IMG/VR virus record: IMGVR_UViG_2645727810_000018
DNA length: 6,474 nt
Origin: a virus
Lineage: Duplodnaviria; Heunggongvirae; Uroviricota; Caudoviricetes
Strand: one strand, 5' to 3'
Within the stretch, counting starts at the first letter, position 1. Every line of letters begins with the position of its first letter. The translations under genes and the position numbers were made by a program. Of the stretch, positions 1 to 6,474 are shown in pieces. The notes beneath the pieces are model-generated. The model did not search any database. It saw only the letters and a program-made list of their open reading frames with translations, and had not been told where the DNA came from.

Positions 1-173
1 TTACCGTCCGTGTCCGTCAGCGGGGTTTTGTTCACCAGAATACTCTGCAGGCCTTTCACCGGGCCTTCTATCGGTCCCTCACCAATCGCATCAATCACAC
101 TCATCATCTGCGTGGATTTGAGATTGTCCTTCGCCTCGCGCGGTGTGTGCGCCTTGCCGCCACCTTTGCCCAT
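1..173 (-). CDS. J: Host specificity protein J (central tail fibre), N-terminal fragment; gene continues past the left edge
   Basis: Minus-strand ATG at 173-171 preceded by an SD-like AAGGGTGAG. My translation is MGKGGGKAHTPREAKDNLKSTQMMSVIDAIGEGPIEGPVKGLQSILVNKTPLTDTDG, which closely matches the N-terminus of lambda J as I recall it (MGKGSSKGHTPREAKDNLKSTQLLSVIDAISEGPIEGPVDGL...). Partial ORF, not in the supplied track. Confidence 0.8.
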   Translation of the reverse strand, partial: MGKGGGKAHTPREAKDNLKSTQMMSVIDAIGEGPIEGPVKGLQSILVNKTPLTDTDG

Positions 174-204
174 TGTCTCACCCTTTACTGTGATAACTGT
201 TACG

Positions 205-238
205 CACAAAAACAACAGGCATCCCTGAGGATGCCTGT
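205..238 (-). terminator. Intrinsic (rho-independent) terminator-like hairpin between I and J
   Basis: Read on the minus strand: perfect 9-10 bp stem CAGGCATCC / GGATGCCTG (plus 216-237) with 4-nt loop, followed directly by TTGTTTTTGTG. On the plus strand the same hairpin is preceded by an A-run and followed by no T-run, so it is orientation-specific. Confidence 0.45.
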
Positions 239-275
239 ATCATCACTGAATAAAACTTCTGAATATCTTCACATT

Positions 276-303
276 TTTACAAACTGACTGTGGTGCTAAT
301 AAT
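276..303 (+). promoter_or_regulatory. Candidate sigma70 promoter on the plus strand, antisense to the tail operon
   Basis: TTTACA (276-281, 5/6 to TTGACA), 16-bp spacer, AATAAT (298-303, 5/6 to TATAAT), inside the AT-rich I-J spacer. Predicted start near 310, about 90 nt upstream of the plus-strand terminator hairpin at 376-401. Motif match only; AT-rich DNA gives such matches by chance. Confidence 0.2.
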
Positions 304-375
304 TTCTCTGCGTTAATGTTTTTTGTCGTGACATAAGAATAATTCCTTACACTTAATCTTCGTAACGCTCCCTCA

Positions 376-401
376 GTTCCGCAACTCTGCGGGATTTTTT
401 T
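376..401 (+). terminator. Intrinsic terminator-like hairpin on the plus strand
   Basis: Stem CCGCA / TGCGG (379-383 with 388-392), extendable with G-U and U-A pairs to 376-395, 4-nt loop ACTC, followed by TTTTTTT (395-401) then ATTCTTTTT. On the minus strand it is not followed by a U-run, so it would terminate plus-strand transcription only. Confidence 0.35.
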
Positions 402-408
402 ATTCTTT

Positions 409-1089
409 TTACCCCTGCCGCCCGATAACCACGACCTTTCCGCCCCCGCCTTCATCACGGGTGCTGATGTCCTGGGATATCCGTCGTGAACCAACCAGCA
501 TTTCCCCGTAAGGCACCGGCATCGGGTTACCCTGGGCAATCATATTGTCCAGTGACGAAAAATACGTGTTCTGTTTACCGTTATCCGTTGCGCGGTAATC
601 CGGTGTTTTTGCCTTCGGTGCCAGCATCTGGGCCACACCACCCAGAATCATGCTGGCACCCAGTGAAAACAGCATCGTGGTGGCAGAAAAACCACCGGCA
701 CTCAGGGCTGTACCCCATAACGCCATCGAGCCTCCGGCAGTGAAGAAAGAGCCCACGATGGCTGCCGCCCCCAGCACAATCCGCAGTCCGCCCTTTCCGG
801 CTCCGGCCAGTCGCGGCACAATATGGATGACCGCCCCCTCACCCAGAGGTTCGTGAAGACGGGCGTACACCGCCTCCGGTGCCGTGTCCTCACCGCGAAT
901 ACGTATCTGGTACCAGCCTTCGTTCATCTGACGGCGGAATCCCGGCACCTGTAACGACAGCGCCCGGATGGCTTCCGCTGCCGTGTTCACGTACAGGCTG
1001 AGGCGGCGGCCAAATCGTTGTAAATCCCCGTGAAGGCAGATGCGTGCCAGTGGCGGTGACGCCAGACAGAATGCGTTCGTCGTTGCCAT
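409..1089 (-). CDS. I: Tail tip assembly protein I
   Basis: 226-aa ORF. C-terminal half (hydrophobic/Gly-rich segment, then ...SQDISTRDEGGGGKVVVIGRQG) resembles lambda I as I recall it; sits between K and J as in lambda. A 103-bp out-of-frame overlap with the K 3' end agrees with the lambda map coordinates as I recall them (K/I overlap also ~103 bp). SD-like GGGAGAGG upstream of ATG 1089. A GTG at 990-988 overlapping the K stop (GTGA) is a possible alternative start. Confidence 0.85.
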   Translation of the reverse strand: MATTNAFCLASPPLARICLHGDLQRFGRRLSLYVNTAAEAIRALSLQVPGFRRQMNEGWYQIRIRGEDTAPEAVYARLHEPLGEGAVIHIVPRLAGAGKGGLRIVLGAAAIVGSFFTAGGSMALWGTALSAGGFSATTMLFSLGASMILGGVAQMLAPKAKTPDYRATDNGKQNTYFSSLDNMIAQGNPMPVPYGEMLVGSRRISQDISTRDEGGGGKVVVIGRQG

Positions 1090-1730
1090 TTTTCGGAATA
1101 CCTCTCCCGTTTACTCAGTTGTTCAGGCAGATGGTGAAGCAGTTCACCGTTGCCGCAGTAAATGGCGGCATGATTGGCCACCGATGCGCCAAAGCAGCAC
1201 AGCAGGATATCGCCCGCCTGTGCAGAGGACAGGGGCACCCGGTAAAAGCCGGTGACCGCCATATTGTCCAGGTAAAGGTTCTGACCGTTGCGCCACCAGT
1301 CATCCTCACGCTCAAAATCCGGCATATCAATTCCCGCCAGATGGTAGGCATCCCGGAACAGCGTGTAACAGTCCGTCACCCCGTGCTCAAAGCGCCGTCC
1401 TGTCAGATGTGGCACACAGCGGAATTTATGAATGTCCCCCCGGCAGACCAGCCACCAGGACAGTGCACTTTTTATCTGCAGCCGCCGGTCGGCCTCGCTC
1501 AGCCAGGGCAGACCACCGGGATGACTGTGGACCAGTGCCACAATCTCCCCCTGCATCTCTGCCCGCAGCCAGTCTTCCGGTGCAATACGAAAATACGCCT
1601 CCGGCTCTGCAGAGATATTCACACAAGGGATATACCGCTCCCCCTCCGGCGTTCTCACCACGAAGCCGCACGACTCCGCAGGCACACACCGCCAGGCATG
1701 CGCCAGAATCGCTGATTCTGTCTGTGTCAT
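987..1730 (-). CDS. K: Tail tip assembly protein K (JAMM/MPN+ and NlpC/P60 peptidase domains)
   Basis: 247-aa ORF. Contains a JAMM-type motif (EIVALVHSHPGG...SEAD) and NlpC/P60-like Cys/His residues (DCYTLF...NHAAIYCGNGELLHH). Start is 5 nt after the ancestral L stop. The 247-aa length fits the full lambda K reading frame. Confidence 0.85.
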   Translation of the reverse strand: MTQTESAILAHAWRCVPAESCGFVVRTPEGERYIPCVNISAEPEAYFRIAPEDWLRAEMQGEIVALVHSHPGGLPWLSEADRRLQIKSALSWWLVCRGDIHKFRCVPHLTGRRFEHGVTDCYTLFRDAYHLAGIDMPDFEREDDWWRNGQNLYLDNMAVTGFYRVPLSSAQAGDILLCCFGASVANHAAIYCGNGELLHHLPEQLSKRERYSEKWQRRTHSVWRHRHWHASAFTGIYNDLAAASACT

Positions 1731-1775
1731 TGGATTTACTGCGAAAGTTTGTTAATGGAAAGGAAACCGCCAAAA

Positions 1776-2435
1776 TTAGCCAACATGCCTGCGCAGCTCA
1801 CACCCGCGCATGCACTTGCTGCATCTGTCCTTACGGATATCCGTGGTGGGGTTATCGAACTCATCCGCCACCGCAGGACCGTTATACCCGCATTCATCTC
1901 CCCGGTAATCCCACATACAGGTGTTCGCCAGCATGATGCGACCGGGAAACAGCGCCCCGTCCGTCTCCGTCGGTGTGGCCAGCACAAACGAGGCCGTCAT
2001 GGCCGTCAGCTCCGACATCTGCTCCACCACCCAGCGGTCACTCAGCTCCTGCTCCGGGTCCGCCTCCGGATTGCCCGCAACAAAATTCACCGCATCCAGA
2101 AAACGGGCATACACCCGGCGGCGGACCACCGTGGCCCCCACCAGACTCTGCAGGTCCTCCGCCATCCCGGTGACAAGACCAAACAGATTCGACACCGTCA
2201 GCGACGGGCGGGCACTGCTGCCCCGCCCGTTCATCTCAAAGCCACTGCCGTCAATCGGGTATGCCTCATACTGACGCCCCTGCCAGGTAACCGCCTCCCC
2301 TTTTTCATTCAGCTCATTACAGAAAAAATACCGCTCACCACCCTGCACCATCAGGTCAATTTCCCAGAGCACCACCCGCGGTGACTGCTCTGACTTAACC
2401 GACTCGTTCAGACTTTCTTCGTGAATATCCTGCAT
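1776..2435 (-). CDS. L: Tail tip protein L, apparently frameshifted near the 3' end (ancestral frame would end at 1736)
   Basis: 219-aa ORF, MQDIHEESLNE...CSKCMRGCELRRHVG, very close to lambda L including the C-terminal Cys cluster. The last 13 residues expected from lambda L (NFGGFLSINKLSQ) are encoded in the adjacent frame (end of track ORF 1736..1987), which stops 5 nt before the K start. 219 + 13 = 232 aa, the lambda L length. ATG overlaps the M stop (TGATG). Confidence 0.8.
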   Translation of the reverse strand: MQDIHEESLNESVKSEQSPRVVLWEIDLMVQGGERYFFCNELNEKGEAVTWQGRQYEAYPIDGSGFEMNGRGSSARPSLTVSNLFGLVTGMAEDLQSLVGATVVRRRVYARFLDAVNFVAGNPEADPEQELSDRWVVEQMSELTAMTASFVLATPTETDGALFPGRIMLANTCMWDYRGDECGYNGPAVADEFDNPTTDIRKDRCSKCMRGCELRRHVG

Positions 2436-2776
2436 CAGTTCACCACCTGCTCAATCGTACAACTGAAATCACTGTACCGGGCATTATCCGTGACACTCCA
2501 CTCACGGCACACAACCCTCACCGTCCGGTTATGTTTCGGCGGTCGCCACAAAAAGGCACGGTAACCACCATGCCACGATAAAAACTCTTCCAGCCAGCGC
2601 CGGGTCGACTCATCCGTCACCCGGAACACCGCCTGAAACGTCTTCAGTCGAGCATTAAGCCCCGTCGGGCGGCGCTGTTCATAACCGTCACCAAACCGCA
2701 CCCTCACCACCGACGGCTTCTCACTCACCTGCATCCCTTCACGCGGGACCAGATGCAGCGTTTTTATCTCAGCCAC
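2435..2776 (-). CDS. M: Tail tip protein M
   Basis: 113-aa ORF with ...VRVRFGDGYEQRRPTGLNARLKTF...FLWRPP...EQVVN, matching lambda M (...VRKVRFGDGYSQRAPAGLNANLKTY...EFEQVVN). GTG start overlaps the tape-measure stop by 8 nt; its stop overlaps the L start. Confidence 0.85.
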   Translation of the reverse strand: MAEIKTLHLVPREGMQVSEKPSVVRVRFGDGYEQRRPTGLNARLKTFQAVFRVTDESTRRWLEEFLSWHGGYRAFLWRPPKHNRTVRVVCREWSVTDNARYSDFSCTIEQVVN

Positions 2777-5153
2777 TCAGCATTCCTCCGTCACGTCGCA
2801 TGGACAGCATCACCGCCTGCACCCGCTGGTCAATCAGTTGCACAAGGCTGCCCGCAGCTTCCGGCCCTATCTGGCCATTAGTCCCGTCATTCTGAATGGC
2901 GATATGGTAGACCGGGGAATACACCAGACCCGCACTGCCGTACATACTGCCCACCGCTCGCACACCCAGCGAGCCATCCGCCGCCCGCGTCAGAGGCATA
3001 ATGGCTTCAGGACCGGCCTCCCCCATCAGTCCCGCCCCTTTTGCAAAGGCAAAGTACGTGGGCGTATCCACAATACTGTTGCTGTACGCACTCAGGTTTG
3101 CCGAGGTATACACCCCGCCTTTTGCATTGGCCACCGCACCGCCCAGCCAGCCACCAATACTGCCGAGAAATCCTCCCGCACCGGACATACCGTTTGCCGC
3201 CGTCTTAATCCCGTTGACAATCGCGGCATTCATAAGAACTTTTGATATTTCCTGCAGCACTGATGAGGCCCAGCTGCGCCATTCCACTTTATTTCCGTTC
3301 AGCATCTCCGTGATGTTATTCACCATCCCTGAGATACCCTCCGTCGCAAGCTGTGCTGCCTGTGAGGCGTAATCGGACGCATTATCCACCCAGTTACTGA
3401 ATCCCTCCTGCAGCCCTTTCTGCCAGTCCGCACGCTGCACATCCGATTCGGCATAAAAGGCTTCCTGCTCTTTCAGACGTTCACTCAGATACTGCGCGTT
3501 CTGTGCCAGCGCCTGTCTGTAAAAATCCTCACTGATATCCCCGGTCTGATACTGAGACTGAAGGTCCGCATCCTTCTGGCGGAAACTGTCGCGGATCTGC
3601 TGCAACTCCCGCATGCGTTCACGGAGCCGCTCTCCCTGCCCGTACCCCAGCAGTTCCGCTTCATTTGATGCACGCGCAGCCACATTATCATTCTTCAGGG
3701 TCTCTTCCCGGGACCGCAACTGCTCCCGGATTTTTTGCTGGTCAATCAGGGCCGCATTGCGCAGCAGTTCCTGCTTCTGCATCTCCGTCAGGGTTTTCAG
3801 TTCGCCCTGCGCAGTCTGGTATTTCAGCTTCGCCAGCTCTGTATTCTGCCCCGCAAGTGCCAATTGCTCTTTCTGCTGCTTCAGCAGCCGGGAAAAACTG
3901 TCTTCCGCTTTTTCCGTCTCTGATTTTCCACCCCGGGATTTGGGTTTATTCGCCTCGTTATTGCGCCAGGCTTCCAGGGCATTACTGATATAACGTTGTC
4001 TCGCCTCCTGATACGGTTCACCCACAAAACCGAGGTCATCCGCCGCATACCCCAGCCGGACGCGCTCTTTTTCTTCCCCTTTCAGTCTGGACAGGGCCAG
4101 CTCACGCTCTGTTTTTGTCAGGGCACTCTGCTGTTTATCATCCAGAGTGGCCTGTGGCAGCCGTAACGGCACATTCACCAGTCCCTGCCGCTGCTGAAGC
4201 AGTTCATTACCCAGCCCCAGCAGACGGTTGAATTCCGTATGCTGACCGTTCATAACCAGCATGGACTGGTACACCTTATTCTGCTCTGCCGCCTGCTGAC
4301 GAATTAACGCCACACGACGGTCTTCCAGCCCGGCAAGCACATCCTGAATGGACTGCGCTTTTTCCTGCATCTGTGCCAGACGGGACTGCTCAACGGCAAG
4401 CTGCTCTGTTGCCTGAGAAAGCCCTTCCGTCACGGTCTTCACCGAGGTCAGATGGTTTATCATGAATCCGTCACCGGTCGTCCAGCCAGGGTTAGCCAGA
4501 ACATACTGATATCCAGCGATTTTTTCCTGCAGGGATTTCACCCGACTGGCCTGTTCATCAATCAGCCGGTTCTGCTCTGCCAGCGCCGCCCGTGTTCGTC
4601 CTTCATTATCTGAGGCTTCAGGCAAAGACATTGACAGCGTTTTATGCGCGATTTCATCTATCGTCAGTGCATACTGGCGCGCAGACTCCCTGGCCTGCTC
4701 CTGATTCTGGTACAGCGTATACCATGCTGCAGCCCCCAGCATCACCAGTCCGGGTACGCCACCAACCAGCCCCAACGCACCACTCATCAGACGTGAGCCC
4801 ACCGCCGTTGTACTGTTCAGCGCATTCTGGGCGGCGCTTCTGGCAGCAATATTTCTGTTCAGGCGTTCCTGTGTGGCCGCCAGACGGGCCTCTGCAGCAA
4901 TCTGCATCTCCGTCCCGCGGGCTGCCGCCACAGCCTGCTGAGCACAGTACACGGCTGCCCTTGCCCGCGCCGTGGCAATCTGCGTCCCCCTGAACTGTGC
5001 TTCCGCCAGTGCAACTTCATTACGTGCAGCCGTCACAAGTCCTGCCGTGGCAGACACCGCTCCGGAGGCCATATTGCCAAAGTACCGGGCAACCCCGACG
5101 GCAACCAGCGCGCCCAGCGGCTGTTGCCACATTATCAATATGACCGGCAACAC
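2769..5153 (-). CDS. H: Tail tape measure protein, C-terminal ~790-codon segment (frame B)
   Basis: 794-aa ORF. Long Q/E/R/K/L-rich predicted coiled-coil middle, Gly-rich hydrophobic segment (GAGGFLGSIGGWLGGAVANAKGG), and C-terminus ...IAIQNDGTNGQIGPEAAGSL...RRDGGMLSG matching lambda H (...NNDGTNGQIGPAA...DGGLFSGGGR). The annotated GTG start at 5153 is probably not a real initiation site; it looks like the downstream half of a frame-disrupted gene. Confidence 0.8.
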   Translation of the reverse strand: MLPVILIMWQQPLGALVAVGVARYFGNMASGAVSATAGLVTAARNEVALAEAQFRGTQIATARARAAVYCAQQAVAAARGTEMQIAAEARLAATQERLNRNIAARSAAQNALNSTTAVGSRLMSGALGLVGGVPGLVMLGAAAWYTLYQNQEQARESARQYALTIDEIAHKTLSMSLPEASDNEGRTRAALAEQNRLIDEQASRVKSLQEKIAGYQYVLANPGWTTGDGFMINHLTSVKTVTEGLSQATEQLAVEQSRLAQMQEKAQSIQDVLAGLEDRRVALIRQQAAEQNKVYQSMLVMNGQHTEFNRLLGLGNELLQQRQGLVNVPLRLPQATLDDKQQSALTKTERELALSRLKGEEKERVRLGYAADDLGFVGEPYQEARQRYISNALEAWRNNEANKPKSRGGKSETEKAEDSFSRLLKQQKEQLALAGQNTELAKLKYQTAQGELKTLTEMQKQELLRNAALIDQQKIREQLRSREETLKNDNVAARASNEAELLGYGQGERLRERMRELQQIRDSFRQKDADLQSQYQTGDISEDFYRQALAQNAQYLSERLKEQEAFYAESDVQRADWQKGLQEGFSNWVDNASDYASQAAQLATEGISGMVNNITEMLNGNKVEWRSWASSVLQEISKVLMNAAIVNGIKTAANGMSGAGGFLGSIGGWLGGAVANAKGGVYTSANLSAYSNSIVDTPTYFAFAKGAGLMGEAGPEAIMPLTRAADGSLGVRAVGSMYGSAGLVYSPVYHIAIQNDGTNGQIGPEAAGSLVQLIDQRVQAVMLSMRRDGGMLSG

Positions 5154-6012
5154 CGTTCAGCACGCCGGAGAGCGTTTTCGTCACCCCGCTGGCCTCATTC
5201 GCACCACCCACCCAGGCCATAAAGGCGTTTTCCACCTTTGTGATCCCGTCAGAGACCGTTTCCGGCATGGCGGCATATTCATCACGCAATACCCCCAGCT
5301 GGCTGATTAACGCAGGAACGACTTTATCCGCCGTCAGTTGACCATCGTCCGCCATCGCCTTAAGATCTTTACGGGCCACGCCCATACCCGCAGCCAGTGC
5401 ACGAACGATCCGGTCACCACTTTCATTGACCGAATTAAATTCCTCACCGCGCAACACACCCTGTGCCAGCGCCTGGCTGAACTGGGTGATCACCGAACCC
5501 GCCTCAGCCGTACTGGCACCGGAGATTTTCAGCCCCGTGGAAATGGCCTCCGTCACCTTCAGCACATCACCAGCACTGTAACCATATTCACGCATCGAGG
5601 CAGCCGAACGGGCAAACAGGGCCGCATTATCCGAAAAAGCCGTACCCGTCCGCTGACTGATATCCATCAGCACTTTCTGTGATGACGAAAATTCATCGGA
5701 TGACTGCGACGCCTGTTTCAGACGGGCATTCACGGAACTCCACTCATCAGCCAGAGAAATCAGGTGTCCGGTGGCAAAGGCACCGGCAAATGCCCCAGCC
5801 ATTCCGACAGCCGAAGCGCGGATTTCCGTCAACTGGCTGTTCAGCTCAGCCAGGGCACGTCGCTGCTCCCGGGCGACCGCAGCAGCCTGACGCCCGCCAT
5901 TCTGCAGGGTCCGGTAATATTCACTGCCCATACGGGAAGCCCGCTGGATCTCCGACTGGAATGACTGCGAATTTGCCGAAATTTTGATAATCAGTTCACG
6001 TAACGTCACCAT
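5020..6012 (-). CDS. H: Tail tape measure protein, N-terminal ~330-codon segment (frame A)
   Basis: 330-aa ORF starting ATG 6012 with SD-like GGAGAAAGG upstream. Contains a segment (GYSAGDVLKVTEAISTGLKISGASTAEAGSVITQFSQALAQGVLRGEEFNSVNESGDRIVRALAAGMGV) that looks like the conserved core of TP901-type tape measure proteins. Its last ~30 residues (CRRGCPVLWQYGLRSGVCHGRTCDGCT) look out of frame; overlaps the frame-B ORF by 134 nt. Confidence 0.8.
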   Translation of the reverse strand: MVTLRELIIKISANSQSFQSEIQRASRMGSEYYRTLQNGGRQAAAVAREQRRALAELNSQLTEIRASAVGMAGAFAGAFATGHLISLADEWSSVNARLKQASQSSDEFSSSQKVLMDISQRTGTAFSDNAALFARSAASMREYGYSAGDVLKVTEAISTGLKISGASTAEAGSVITQFSQALAQGVLRGEEFNSVNESGDRIVRALAAGMGVARKDLKAMADDGQLTADKVVPALISQLGVLRDEYAAMPETVSDGITKVENAFMAWVGGANEASGVTKTLSGVLNGVAGHIDNVATAAGRAGCRRGCPVLWQYGLRSGVCHGRTCDGCT

Positions 6013-6028
6013 TCACCTTTCTCCGGGC

Positions 6029-6051
6029 GTAAAAAAACCGCCTCAGCGGTT
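6029..6051 (-). terminator. Terminator-like hairpin (possible attenuator) between T stop and tape-measure start
   Basis: Minus strand: AACCGC-TGAG-GCGGTT (plus 6036-6051) followed by a U-run (plus A-run 6031-6035), in the 47-nt spacer between the T stop (6060) and the TMP ATG (6012). Confidence 0.3.
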
Positions 6052-6059
6052 CTCATCAT

Positions 6060-6374
6060 TCATGACTGTGCTGCAAAGCTCAGCGCGTCTTCCAGCGCCG
6101 CAAACGGATCCACCTCCGGCTTATCCTCATCCTCGCCCCAGCAGAGCATGGCGTCCTTCAGTGCAACATTCATCCCCTGTGCCCCGAAAACCGCTTTCAC
6201 GATCTGTGCATTACGGATATCCCCGCGCTCATCACCCAGCGGGGATACCCTGTCGAACTCCATCCACATCATCGCCTCGCTCGCACTCAGGCTGTGCCGC
6301 AGTTCGGATAAGGTGCGCCCCAGACGGAGCGCAAGTCGCATCAGAAAGCGAATTTCCGGGCGGGCTACTTTTTT
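6060..6374 (-). CDS. T: T segment of tail assembly chaperone GT, reached by −1 ribosomal frameshift from G
   Basis: Frame open from 6389 to stop at 6060 (track ORF 6060..6341 is its ATG-started part). No SD before the internal ATG. Overlaps the G 3' end in the −1 frame, with a slippery heptamer at the overlap. Position immediately upstream of the TMP gene is the conserved G/GT arrangement. Product continues ...KKVARPEIRFLMRLALRLGRTLSELRHSLSASEAMMWMEFDRVSPLGDERGD... Confidence 0.65.
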   Translation of the reverse strand, partial: KKVARPEIRFLMRLALRLGRTLSELRHSLSASEAMMWMEFDRVSPLGDERGDIRNAQIVKAVFGAQGMNVALKDAMLCWGEDEDKPEVDPFAALEDALSFAAQS

Positions 6375-6474
6375 CTGGCCGACTCTGCATCAGCGATCAG
6401 TTCCAGTGCCTGACGCAGCAACCGGGCATGTACCGGACCATAGACGGCCAGCACCTGCTCACGGTCGTCCGGAG
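6365..6474 (-). CDS. G: Tail assembly chaperone G, C-terminal fragment; gene starts beyond the right edge
   Basis: Minus-strand frame open from the window edge to TAG at 6365-6367. My translation is ...PDDREQVLAVYGPVHARLLRQALELIADAESARKK*. Called mainly from position and the frameshift architecture, not from sequence similarity I can verify. Confidence 0.6.
   Translation of the reverse strand, partial: PDDREQVLAVYGPVHARLLRQALELIADAESARKK
6368..6374 (-). other. Programmed −1 frameshift slippery heptamer A_AAA_AAG followed directly by the G stop codon
   Basis: Minus strand reads ...GCC AGA AAA AAG TAG in the G frame. A AAA AAG (plus 6368-6374) is a canonical X_XXY_YYZ slip site; TAG at 6365-6367 follows immediately. 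The −1 frame continues open to 6060. Confidence 0.55.

Follow-up and report, generated by a model that had tools for sequence, protein, structure and literature searches.

A tape measure gene that is divided between two reading frames raises the question of whether the split belongs to the phage, as a programmed feature or as a lesion, or to the sequence in which it was read. We addressed this question in a window of 6,474 nucleotides (the whole stretch of DNA that was analysed), which is contig JHRW01000115.1 (6474 bp) of the draft assembly GCA_001265675.1 in its entirety. The WGS prefix JHRW01 leads to the strain Escherichia coli 102598 (PMC8934634). All the long genes of the window are on the minus strand and make up a lambdoid tail module (HK97/Stx-phage-type), in an order that agrees with the annotated relatives, i.e., with the tape measure gene located between the chaperone genes G/T and the genes M, L, K, I, and J (Table 1). 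Both ends of the contig fall within tail genes, as expected for a contig that is bounded by repeats. The searchable literature on strain 102598 and JHRW01, consulted for the sequencing platform, the assembly method and a publication, yielded the strain name only. Isolates of this kind were presumably sequenced by Illumina and assembled by a pipeline with few super-reads, an assumption that carries no evidential weight here.

Table 1. Coordinates of the genes, reading frames, extra bases and blended stretch in the window.
Feature	Position	Strand	Remarks
Tail assembly chaperone G, 3' end	6365-6474	-	
T	6060-6341	-	Pfam Phage_tail_T
Tape measure gene (lambda gpH / HK97-type)	2769-6012	-	3244 nt as deposited; 3243 nt (1080 aa) without base 5117
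Frame A ORF, 330 aa	5020..6012	-	Genuine N-terminal part to about residue 298, then out-of-frame tail
Extra base, tape measure	5117..5117	-	Sense C, plus-strand G; switches the frame
Frame B ORF, 794 aa	2769..5153	-	Fortuitous GTG start; genuine C-terminal part from ...ALVAVGVARYFG onward
M	2435-2776	-	
L	1776-2435	-	
Extra base, gpL	1790..1790	-	Sense A, near the 3' end of gpL
K	987-1730	-	C40 peptidase / JAB
I	409-990	-	
J, start	about 172 to 1	-	
Per-column blend of Z1322HEC0009-like and E2348/69-like tail modules	about 1255-6474		Letter rule, parent switches
Unblended stretch (gpK 3' part, gpI, I-J spacer, gpJ start)	1..1254		Z1322HEC0009-like copy alone

An earlier note, made from the sequence alone, had described the gene as split across two reading frames. 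The list of ORFs has them on the minus strand, with 330 and 794 aa, and confirms the overlap of 134 nt and the offset of one nucleotide that the note gave, frame B being +1 with respect to frame A (6012-5153 = 859 = 1 mod 3). As had been noted, the reading of frame A becomes rich in Cys, Arg and Trp after ...GHIDNVATAAG, and frame B starts to look genuine at the point given (...ALVAVGVARYFGNMASGAV...). We ran the check that had been proposed, an alignment to intact tape measure homologues, and both the pairwise and the multiple alignments placed the frame switch at one extra sense C in position 5117 (GCAACAGCCG[C]TGGGCGCG; the immediate context on the sense strand is GCCG[C]TGGG), inside the interval 5100-5155 in which a single-nucleotide indel had been predicted. 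As deposited, the gene is not a single uninterrupted ORF, and it becomes one of 3243 nt and 1080 aa once base 5117 is deleted, the size (~1080 aa) that had been anticipated for the intact gene. The restored protein contains three Pfam tape-measure domains, all above the curated cut-offs: TMP_3 (residues 83-272, 192.7 bits), Phage_HK97_TLTM (395-686, 303.1 bits), and Tape_meas_lam_C (862-933, 65.3 bits), so that the identity and the domain reading of the gene were right.

The tape measure gene is of the ordinary lambda gpH/HK97 type. Such genes are well known in this prophage family, and we saw no sign of a different mode of action in this one. Its counterparts in Stx-converting and EPEC prophages (for example ACI43162.1 of the Stx2 phage 1717 and WP_000212986.1 of E2348/69) share 96-98% nucleotide identity with it, have the same three domains, occupy the same place between G/T and M-L-K-I-J and have the 1080 aa that the window would encode without base 5117. 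The window differs from them in having one extra base and codons that are blended from two alleles. Homologues with a query coverage of at least 80% were found in more than 1,200 complete genomes of E. coli and in 91 phage records, and the best matches among those listed were one base shorter than the query (800 vs. 801 nt and 3243 vs. 3244 nt). Eight of the relatives that we fetched have the tape measure annotated as one gene of 3243 nt and 1080 aa. The ninth is the nearest relative, a prophage of E. coli Z1322HEC0009 (NZ_CP148570.1, locus 1-15774) in a genuine state of decay: frameshifts are annotated in its portal, tape measure and J genes, and an IS66 element lies between gp17 and the major tail gene. 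The tape measure pseudogene of this prophage (WHT89_RS05355) belongs to the same lineage as the window (100% identity over window positions 1-1299, 98.7% overall), but the deletion that breaks it is at a different site. A G is missing there at the equivalent of window position 3934, in a complete genome, whereas the window has the base.

A second one-base insertion, a sense A at position 1790, was found near the 3' end of the gene of the minor tail protein L (gpL). The resulting product has 219 aa, compared with 232 aa in all the relatives, and the conserved C-terminal end ...MRGMVANFGGFLSINKLSQ is lost. Neither of the two extra bases is located within a homopolymer, which rules out a homopolymer sequencing error. 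When the window was aligned with six relatives from complete genomes, its sequence at both lesions looked like a mixture of two types of allele. The Z1322HEC0009 type is GCCG-TGGGCGCG at the tape measure site and the E2348/69 type GCCGCTGGG-GCG, while the window reads GCCGCTGGGCGCG, with both inserted columns retained and one net base added. The allele types at the gpL site are CGC-GGCATGGTGGCTAAT and CGCAGGAATGTCGGC-AAT, and the window, with CGCAGGCATGTTGGCTAAT, again retains both inserted columns and gains one net base. Positions 5117 and 1790 thus both coincide exactly with sites where the two types of allele are aligned with paired gaps. At the first of them the alleles differ by three substitutions (GTG GGC vs. 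GCT GGG, i.e., Val-Gly vs. Ala-Gly).

The insertion-bearing sequence had no exact match among 185,579 species-representative genomes, nor in metagenome contigs. A probe of 66 nt, compared by megablast with 5,426 complete E. coli genomes, reached at best 97.0% identity, in a match that lacks the extra base. An exact-protein look-up over about 15 billion proteins returned the 330-aa and the 219-aa products from this contig only. These pattern scans, megablast comparisons and protein look-ups rule out that the same lesion is shared by other genomes among those covered. Close homologues with the same two-ORF organisation, which the earlier note had named as the finding that would speak against a lesion, did not appear in any of the sequences searched.

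The bases in which the window departs from its nearest relative are almost always those of the E2348/69 prophage, and they are almost always G or T on the sense strand. We used the Z1322HEC0009 and E2348/69 prophages as references, i.e., as stand-ins for the real copies, and found 189 alignment columns in which they differ between window positions 1300 and 6474. The window is equal to one of the two references at all of them (189/189), with a third base at none. At 179 of the 189 columns (94.7%) the base present is the alphabetically first of the two on the deposited strand (A>C>G>T; binomial p = 3.4e-41), which on the sense strand amounts to taking the higher letter (T>G>C>A>gap). Where a base was opposed to a gap, the base was retained in 3/3 columns. 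The rule held at 42/42 columns in gpL and at 107/113 in the tape measure gene. Ten columns violate it, two of them as alignment-placement effects at the tape measure site, and the remaining ones are presumably strain-specific differences. The apparent parent changes 95 times over the 189 sites, with a mean run of 1.97 sites, which matches a choice made independently at each site and not recombination tracts. As a control, the same test was applied to 60 triples taken from the six complete genomes with the window excluded, and gave fractions between 0.39 and 0.60 (mean 0.49), indicating that the letter-order test is not biased by base composition.

The window can be rebuilt from the two references. 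A synthetic merge of both, scripted according to the rule, had only 13 differences from the window in positions 1300-6474, compared with 87 for the Z1322HEC0009 prophage and 108 for that of E2348/69. At the gpL site the scripted merge gives exactly the sequence of the window. The multiple alignment is ungapped at the tape measure site, so that there the scripted merge differs from the window, but reading the alleles by hand in an alignment with gaps yields the sequence found. Compared with the six relatives, the window has a single private substitution, located at position 6008 (minus strand), where it has T and the others C, which turns codon 2 of the tape measure gene from Ala into Val. One of the two real copies presumably carries this variant.

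The blend does not extend over the whole contig. Positions 1-1299 are equal to the Z1322HEC0009 prophage at 1299/1299 bases, and the letter rule is there at chance (62/127 columns); the boundary of the blend lies between 1255 and 1254. The gpK protein (987-1730) spans this boundary and was found on no other contig among about 15 billion proteins. The protein of the unblended gpI, in contrast, is present on 79 contigs. Not every product of a blended gene is unique, since the gpM protein, encoded within the blended region, equals a natural allele that is found on 68 contigs, a match compatible with gpM differences that are mostly synonymous. The blended gpK, when translated, gives exactly the RefSeq protein WP_052922813.1, probably a chimera that originated in an assembly artefact and is now in the protein databases. 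The existence of this accession indicates that the blend was already in the deposited record, in plain bases, and rules out that the letter rule derives from the preparation of the window or from IUPAC codes.

A choice by letter order together with insertions that are always retained points to a consensus tie-break over two collapsed copies. We know of no process of mutation, recombination or repair that picks alleles alphabetically on one strand and always retains the insertions. The split of the tape measure gene is very probably a consensus artefact, produced when two similar prophage tail modules were collapsed in a draft assembled from short reads. E. coli 102598, or the DNA that was sequenced from this strain, would hold two lambdoid tail modules roughly 4% apart, one nearly identical to the Z1322HEC0009 prophage and the other like the prophage of the EPEC strain E2348/69. 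The assembler would have stacked both copies in one contig of 6.5 kb, and the columns in conflict would have been settled by a fixed rule, A>C>G>T on the deposited strand and base over gap, applied, we infer, by a software step. A gap-friendly aligner would have aligned the three-substitution difference in the tape measure gene as a compensating pair of one-base gaps, and the retention of both inserted columns would then leave the net extra base at 5117 and split the frame. The same would have happened at 1790 in gpL, and we are highly confident in taking both frameshifts as by-products of the collapsed consensus of co-resident or co-sequenced modules. Both real copies would be intact at 5117, reading GCCGTGGGCGCG and GCCGCTGGGGCG instead of GCCGCTGGGCGCG. 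A blend of this kind would also conceal deletions, and the Z1322HEC0009-like copy may hold the one-base deletion of its lineage at the equivalent of window position 3934.

Contigs of collapsed repeats in short-read drafts of E. coli with several lambdoid prophages resemble this one in being short, in consisting entirely of a conserved tail module and in ending inside genes, and also in mixing two paralogous copies with spurious frameshifts. What differs is that the tie-break in the window is unusually clean and deterministic and that the frameshifts are found specifically at paired gaps. The deterministic, alphabetical tie-break makes the artefact provable from its own letters.

Three explanations had been put forward in the earlier note. 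Assembly error, listed second, is now strongly favoured, in the form of a blend of two alleles, and the defective prophage and ribosomal slippage are not. A decaying prophage, in which a real +1 insertion inactivates the tape measure and a second one damages gpL, has in its favour that the decay of the lineage is real, as seen in the Z1322HEC0009 relative with its three frameshifted genes and the IS66 insertion. Two frame-breaking indels in 6.5 kb could well resemble decay, and neither extra base is in a homopolymer, the usual place of sequencing errors. However, decay leaves unexplained why 179 of the 189 columns follow the alphabet, why the parent switches at every second site and why both indels lie exactly between paired-gap allele differences; neither lesion allele is found in any other sequence searched and nothing at 5117 gives the defective prophage positive support. 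We consider it very unlikely. Lambdoid prophages recombine, and a genuine recombinant could have arisen if two resident lambdoid prophages had exchanged DNA, by homologous recombination or gene conversion, with crossovers between the compensating indels. It would account for the fact that the window combines two known allele classes as a mosaic and has no foreign bases at the informative sites. Yet it would require about 95 exchange points in 5.2 kb and a choice of alleles that depends on the letter (A>C>G>T on one strand, in 94.7% of cases), and to our knowledge no process of recombination or mismatch repair chooses by nucleotide letter. The natural recombinant was rejected on these two grounds, the letter-order bias and the 95 switches, and must be regarded as highly improbable.

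The last explanation to be weighed is that a full-length tape measure protein is made from the two ORFs through a programmed ribosomal frameshift of +1 (or -2) or through transcriptional slippage. The ORFs do overlap, a +1 shift anywhere within 5156-5023 would restore the protein, and recoding does occur in such modules, a genuine-looking -1 signal being located just upstream in the chaperone genes G/T. However, as the earlier note had already remarked for the overlap, there is no slippery heptamer. Our scan of frame A found none of the type X XXY YYZ from the upstream stop of frame B (5159-5157) to the stop of frame A, and the homopolymers in this permissive zone are no longer than GGGG. Conservation is the hallmark of programmed recoding, and most of the homologues fetched have a single ORF of 3243 nt, while the two-ORF layout was found in no other sequence searched and in none of the homologues examined, which contradicts slippage. 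With neither a slippery heptamer or long homopolymer in the permissive zone nor conservation, we rejected a programmed frameshift, to which we assign a negligible probability. There is only a slight chance, overall, that the extra base at 5117 is physically present in a real hybrid prophage, with the tape measure inactivated and gpL truncated, or, far less likely, that +1 recoding is involved. The collapse of two tail modules is the reading that we retain.

The signal in the chaperone genes is of a different kind. The slippery heptamer A AAA AAG (6374-6368, minus strand) is found directly before the TAG stop of the chaperone gene G (the whole element spanning 6374-6365), and the -1 frame entered from it continues into the T ORF. 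From its sequence it looks like the programmed frameshift signal of G/GT. In long-tailed phages the tail assembly chaperones G/GT reportedly share a conserved programmed frameshift of -1, and the heptamer of the window belongs to the same module and is at the place expected from the G/GT precedent of lambda. The split of the tape measure gene, in contrast, has no such signal and is not conserved.

The split of the tape measure gene is almost certainly not a biological feature, and its biological significance is very small. What can be drawn from it concerns quality control, in that the blending of paralogous copies can produce what look like frameshifts, and protein variants found nowhere else, on short prophage contigs in drafts of E. 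coli genomes. In this case the blend has produced three proteins that are unique to the contig among ~15 billion, and one of them, gpK, has a RefSeq accession. The letter-order test, i.e., asking whether the alphabetically first base is present wherever two reference alleles differ, is a simple detector of blends that needs no reads. The value of the case is limited to this warning about prophages in draft assemblies and to the read-free test for a blended consensus.

Two terminator-like hairpins followed by a T-run were also found on the minus strand, both within the late tail operon. The first (6051-6030; AACCGC-TGAG-GCGGTT+TTTTT) is located between the stop of T and the start of the tape measure gene, and the other (238-215; ACAGGCATCC-TCAG-GGATGCCTGT+TGTTTTTG) in the spacer of roughly 235 nt between gpI and gpJ.
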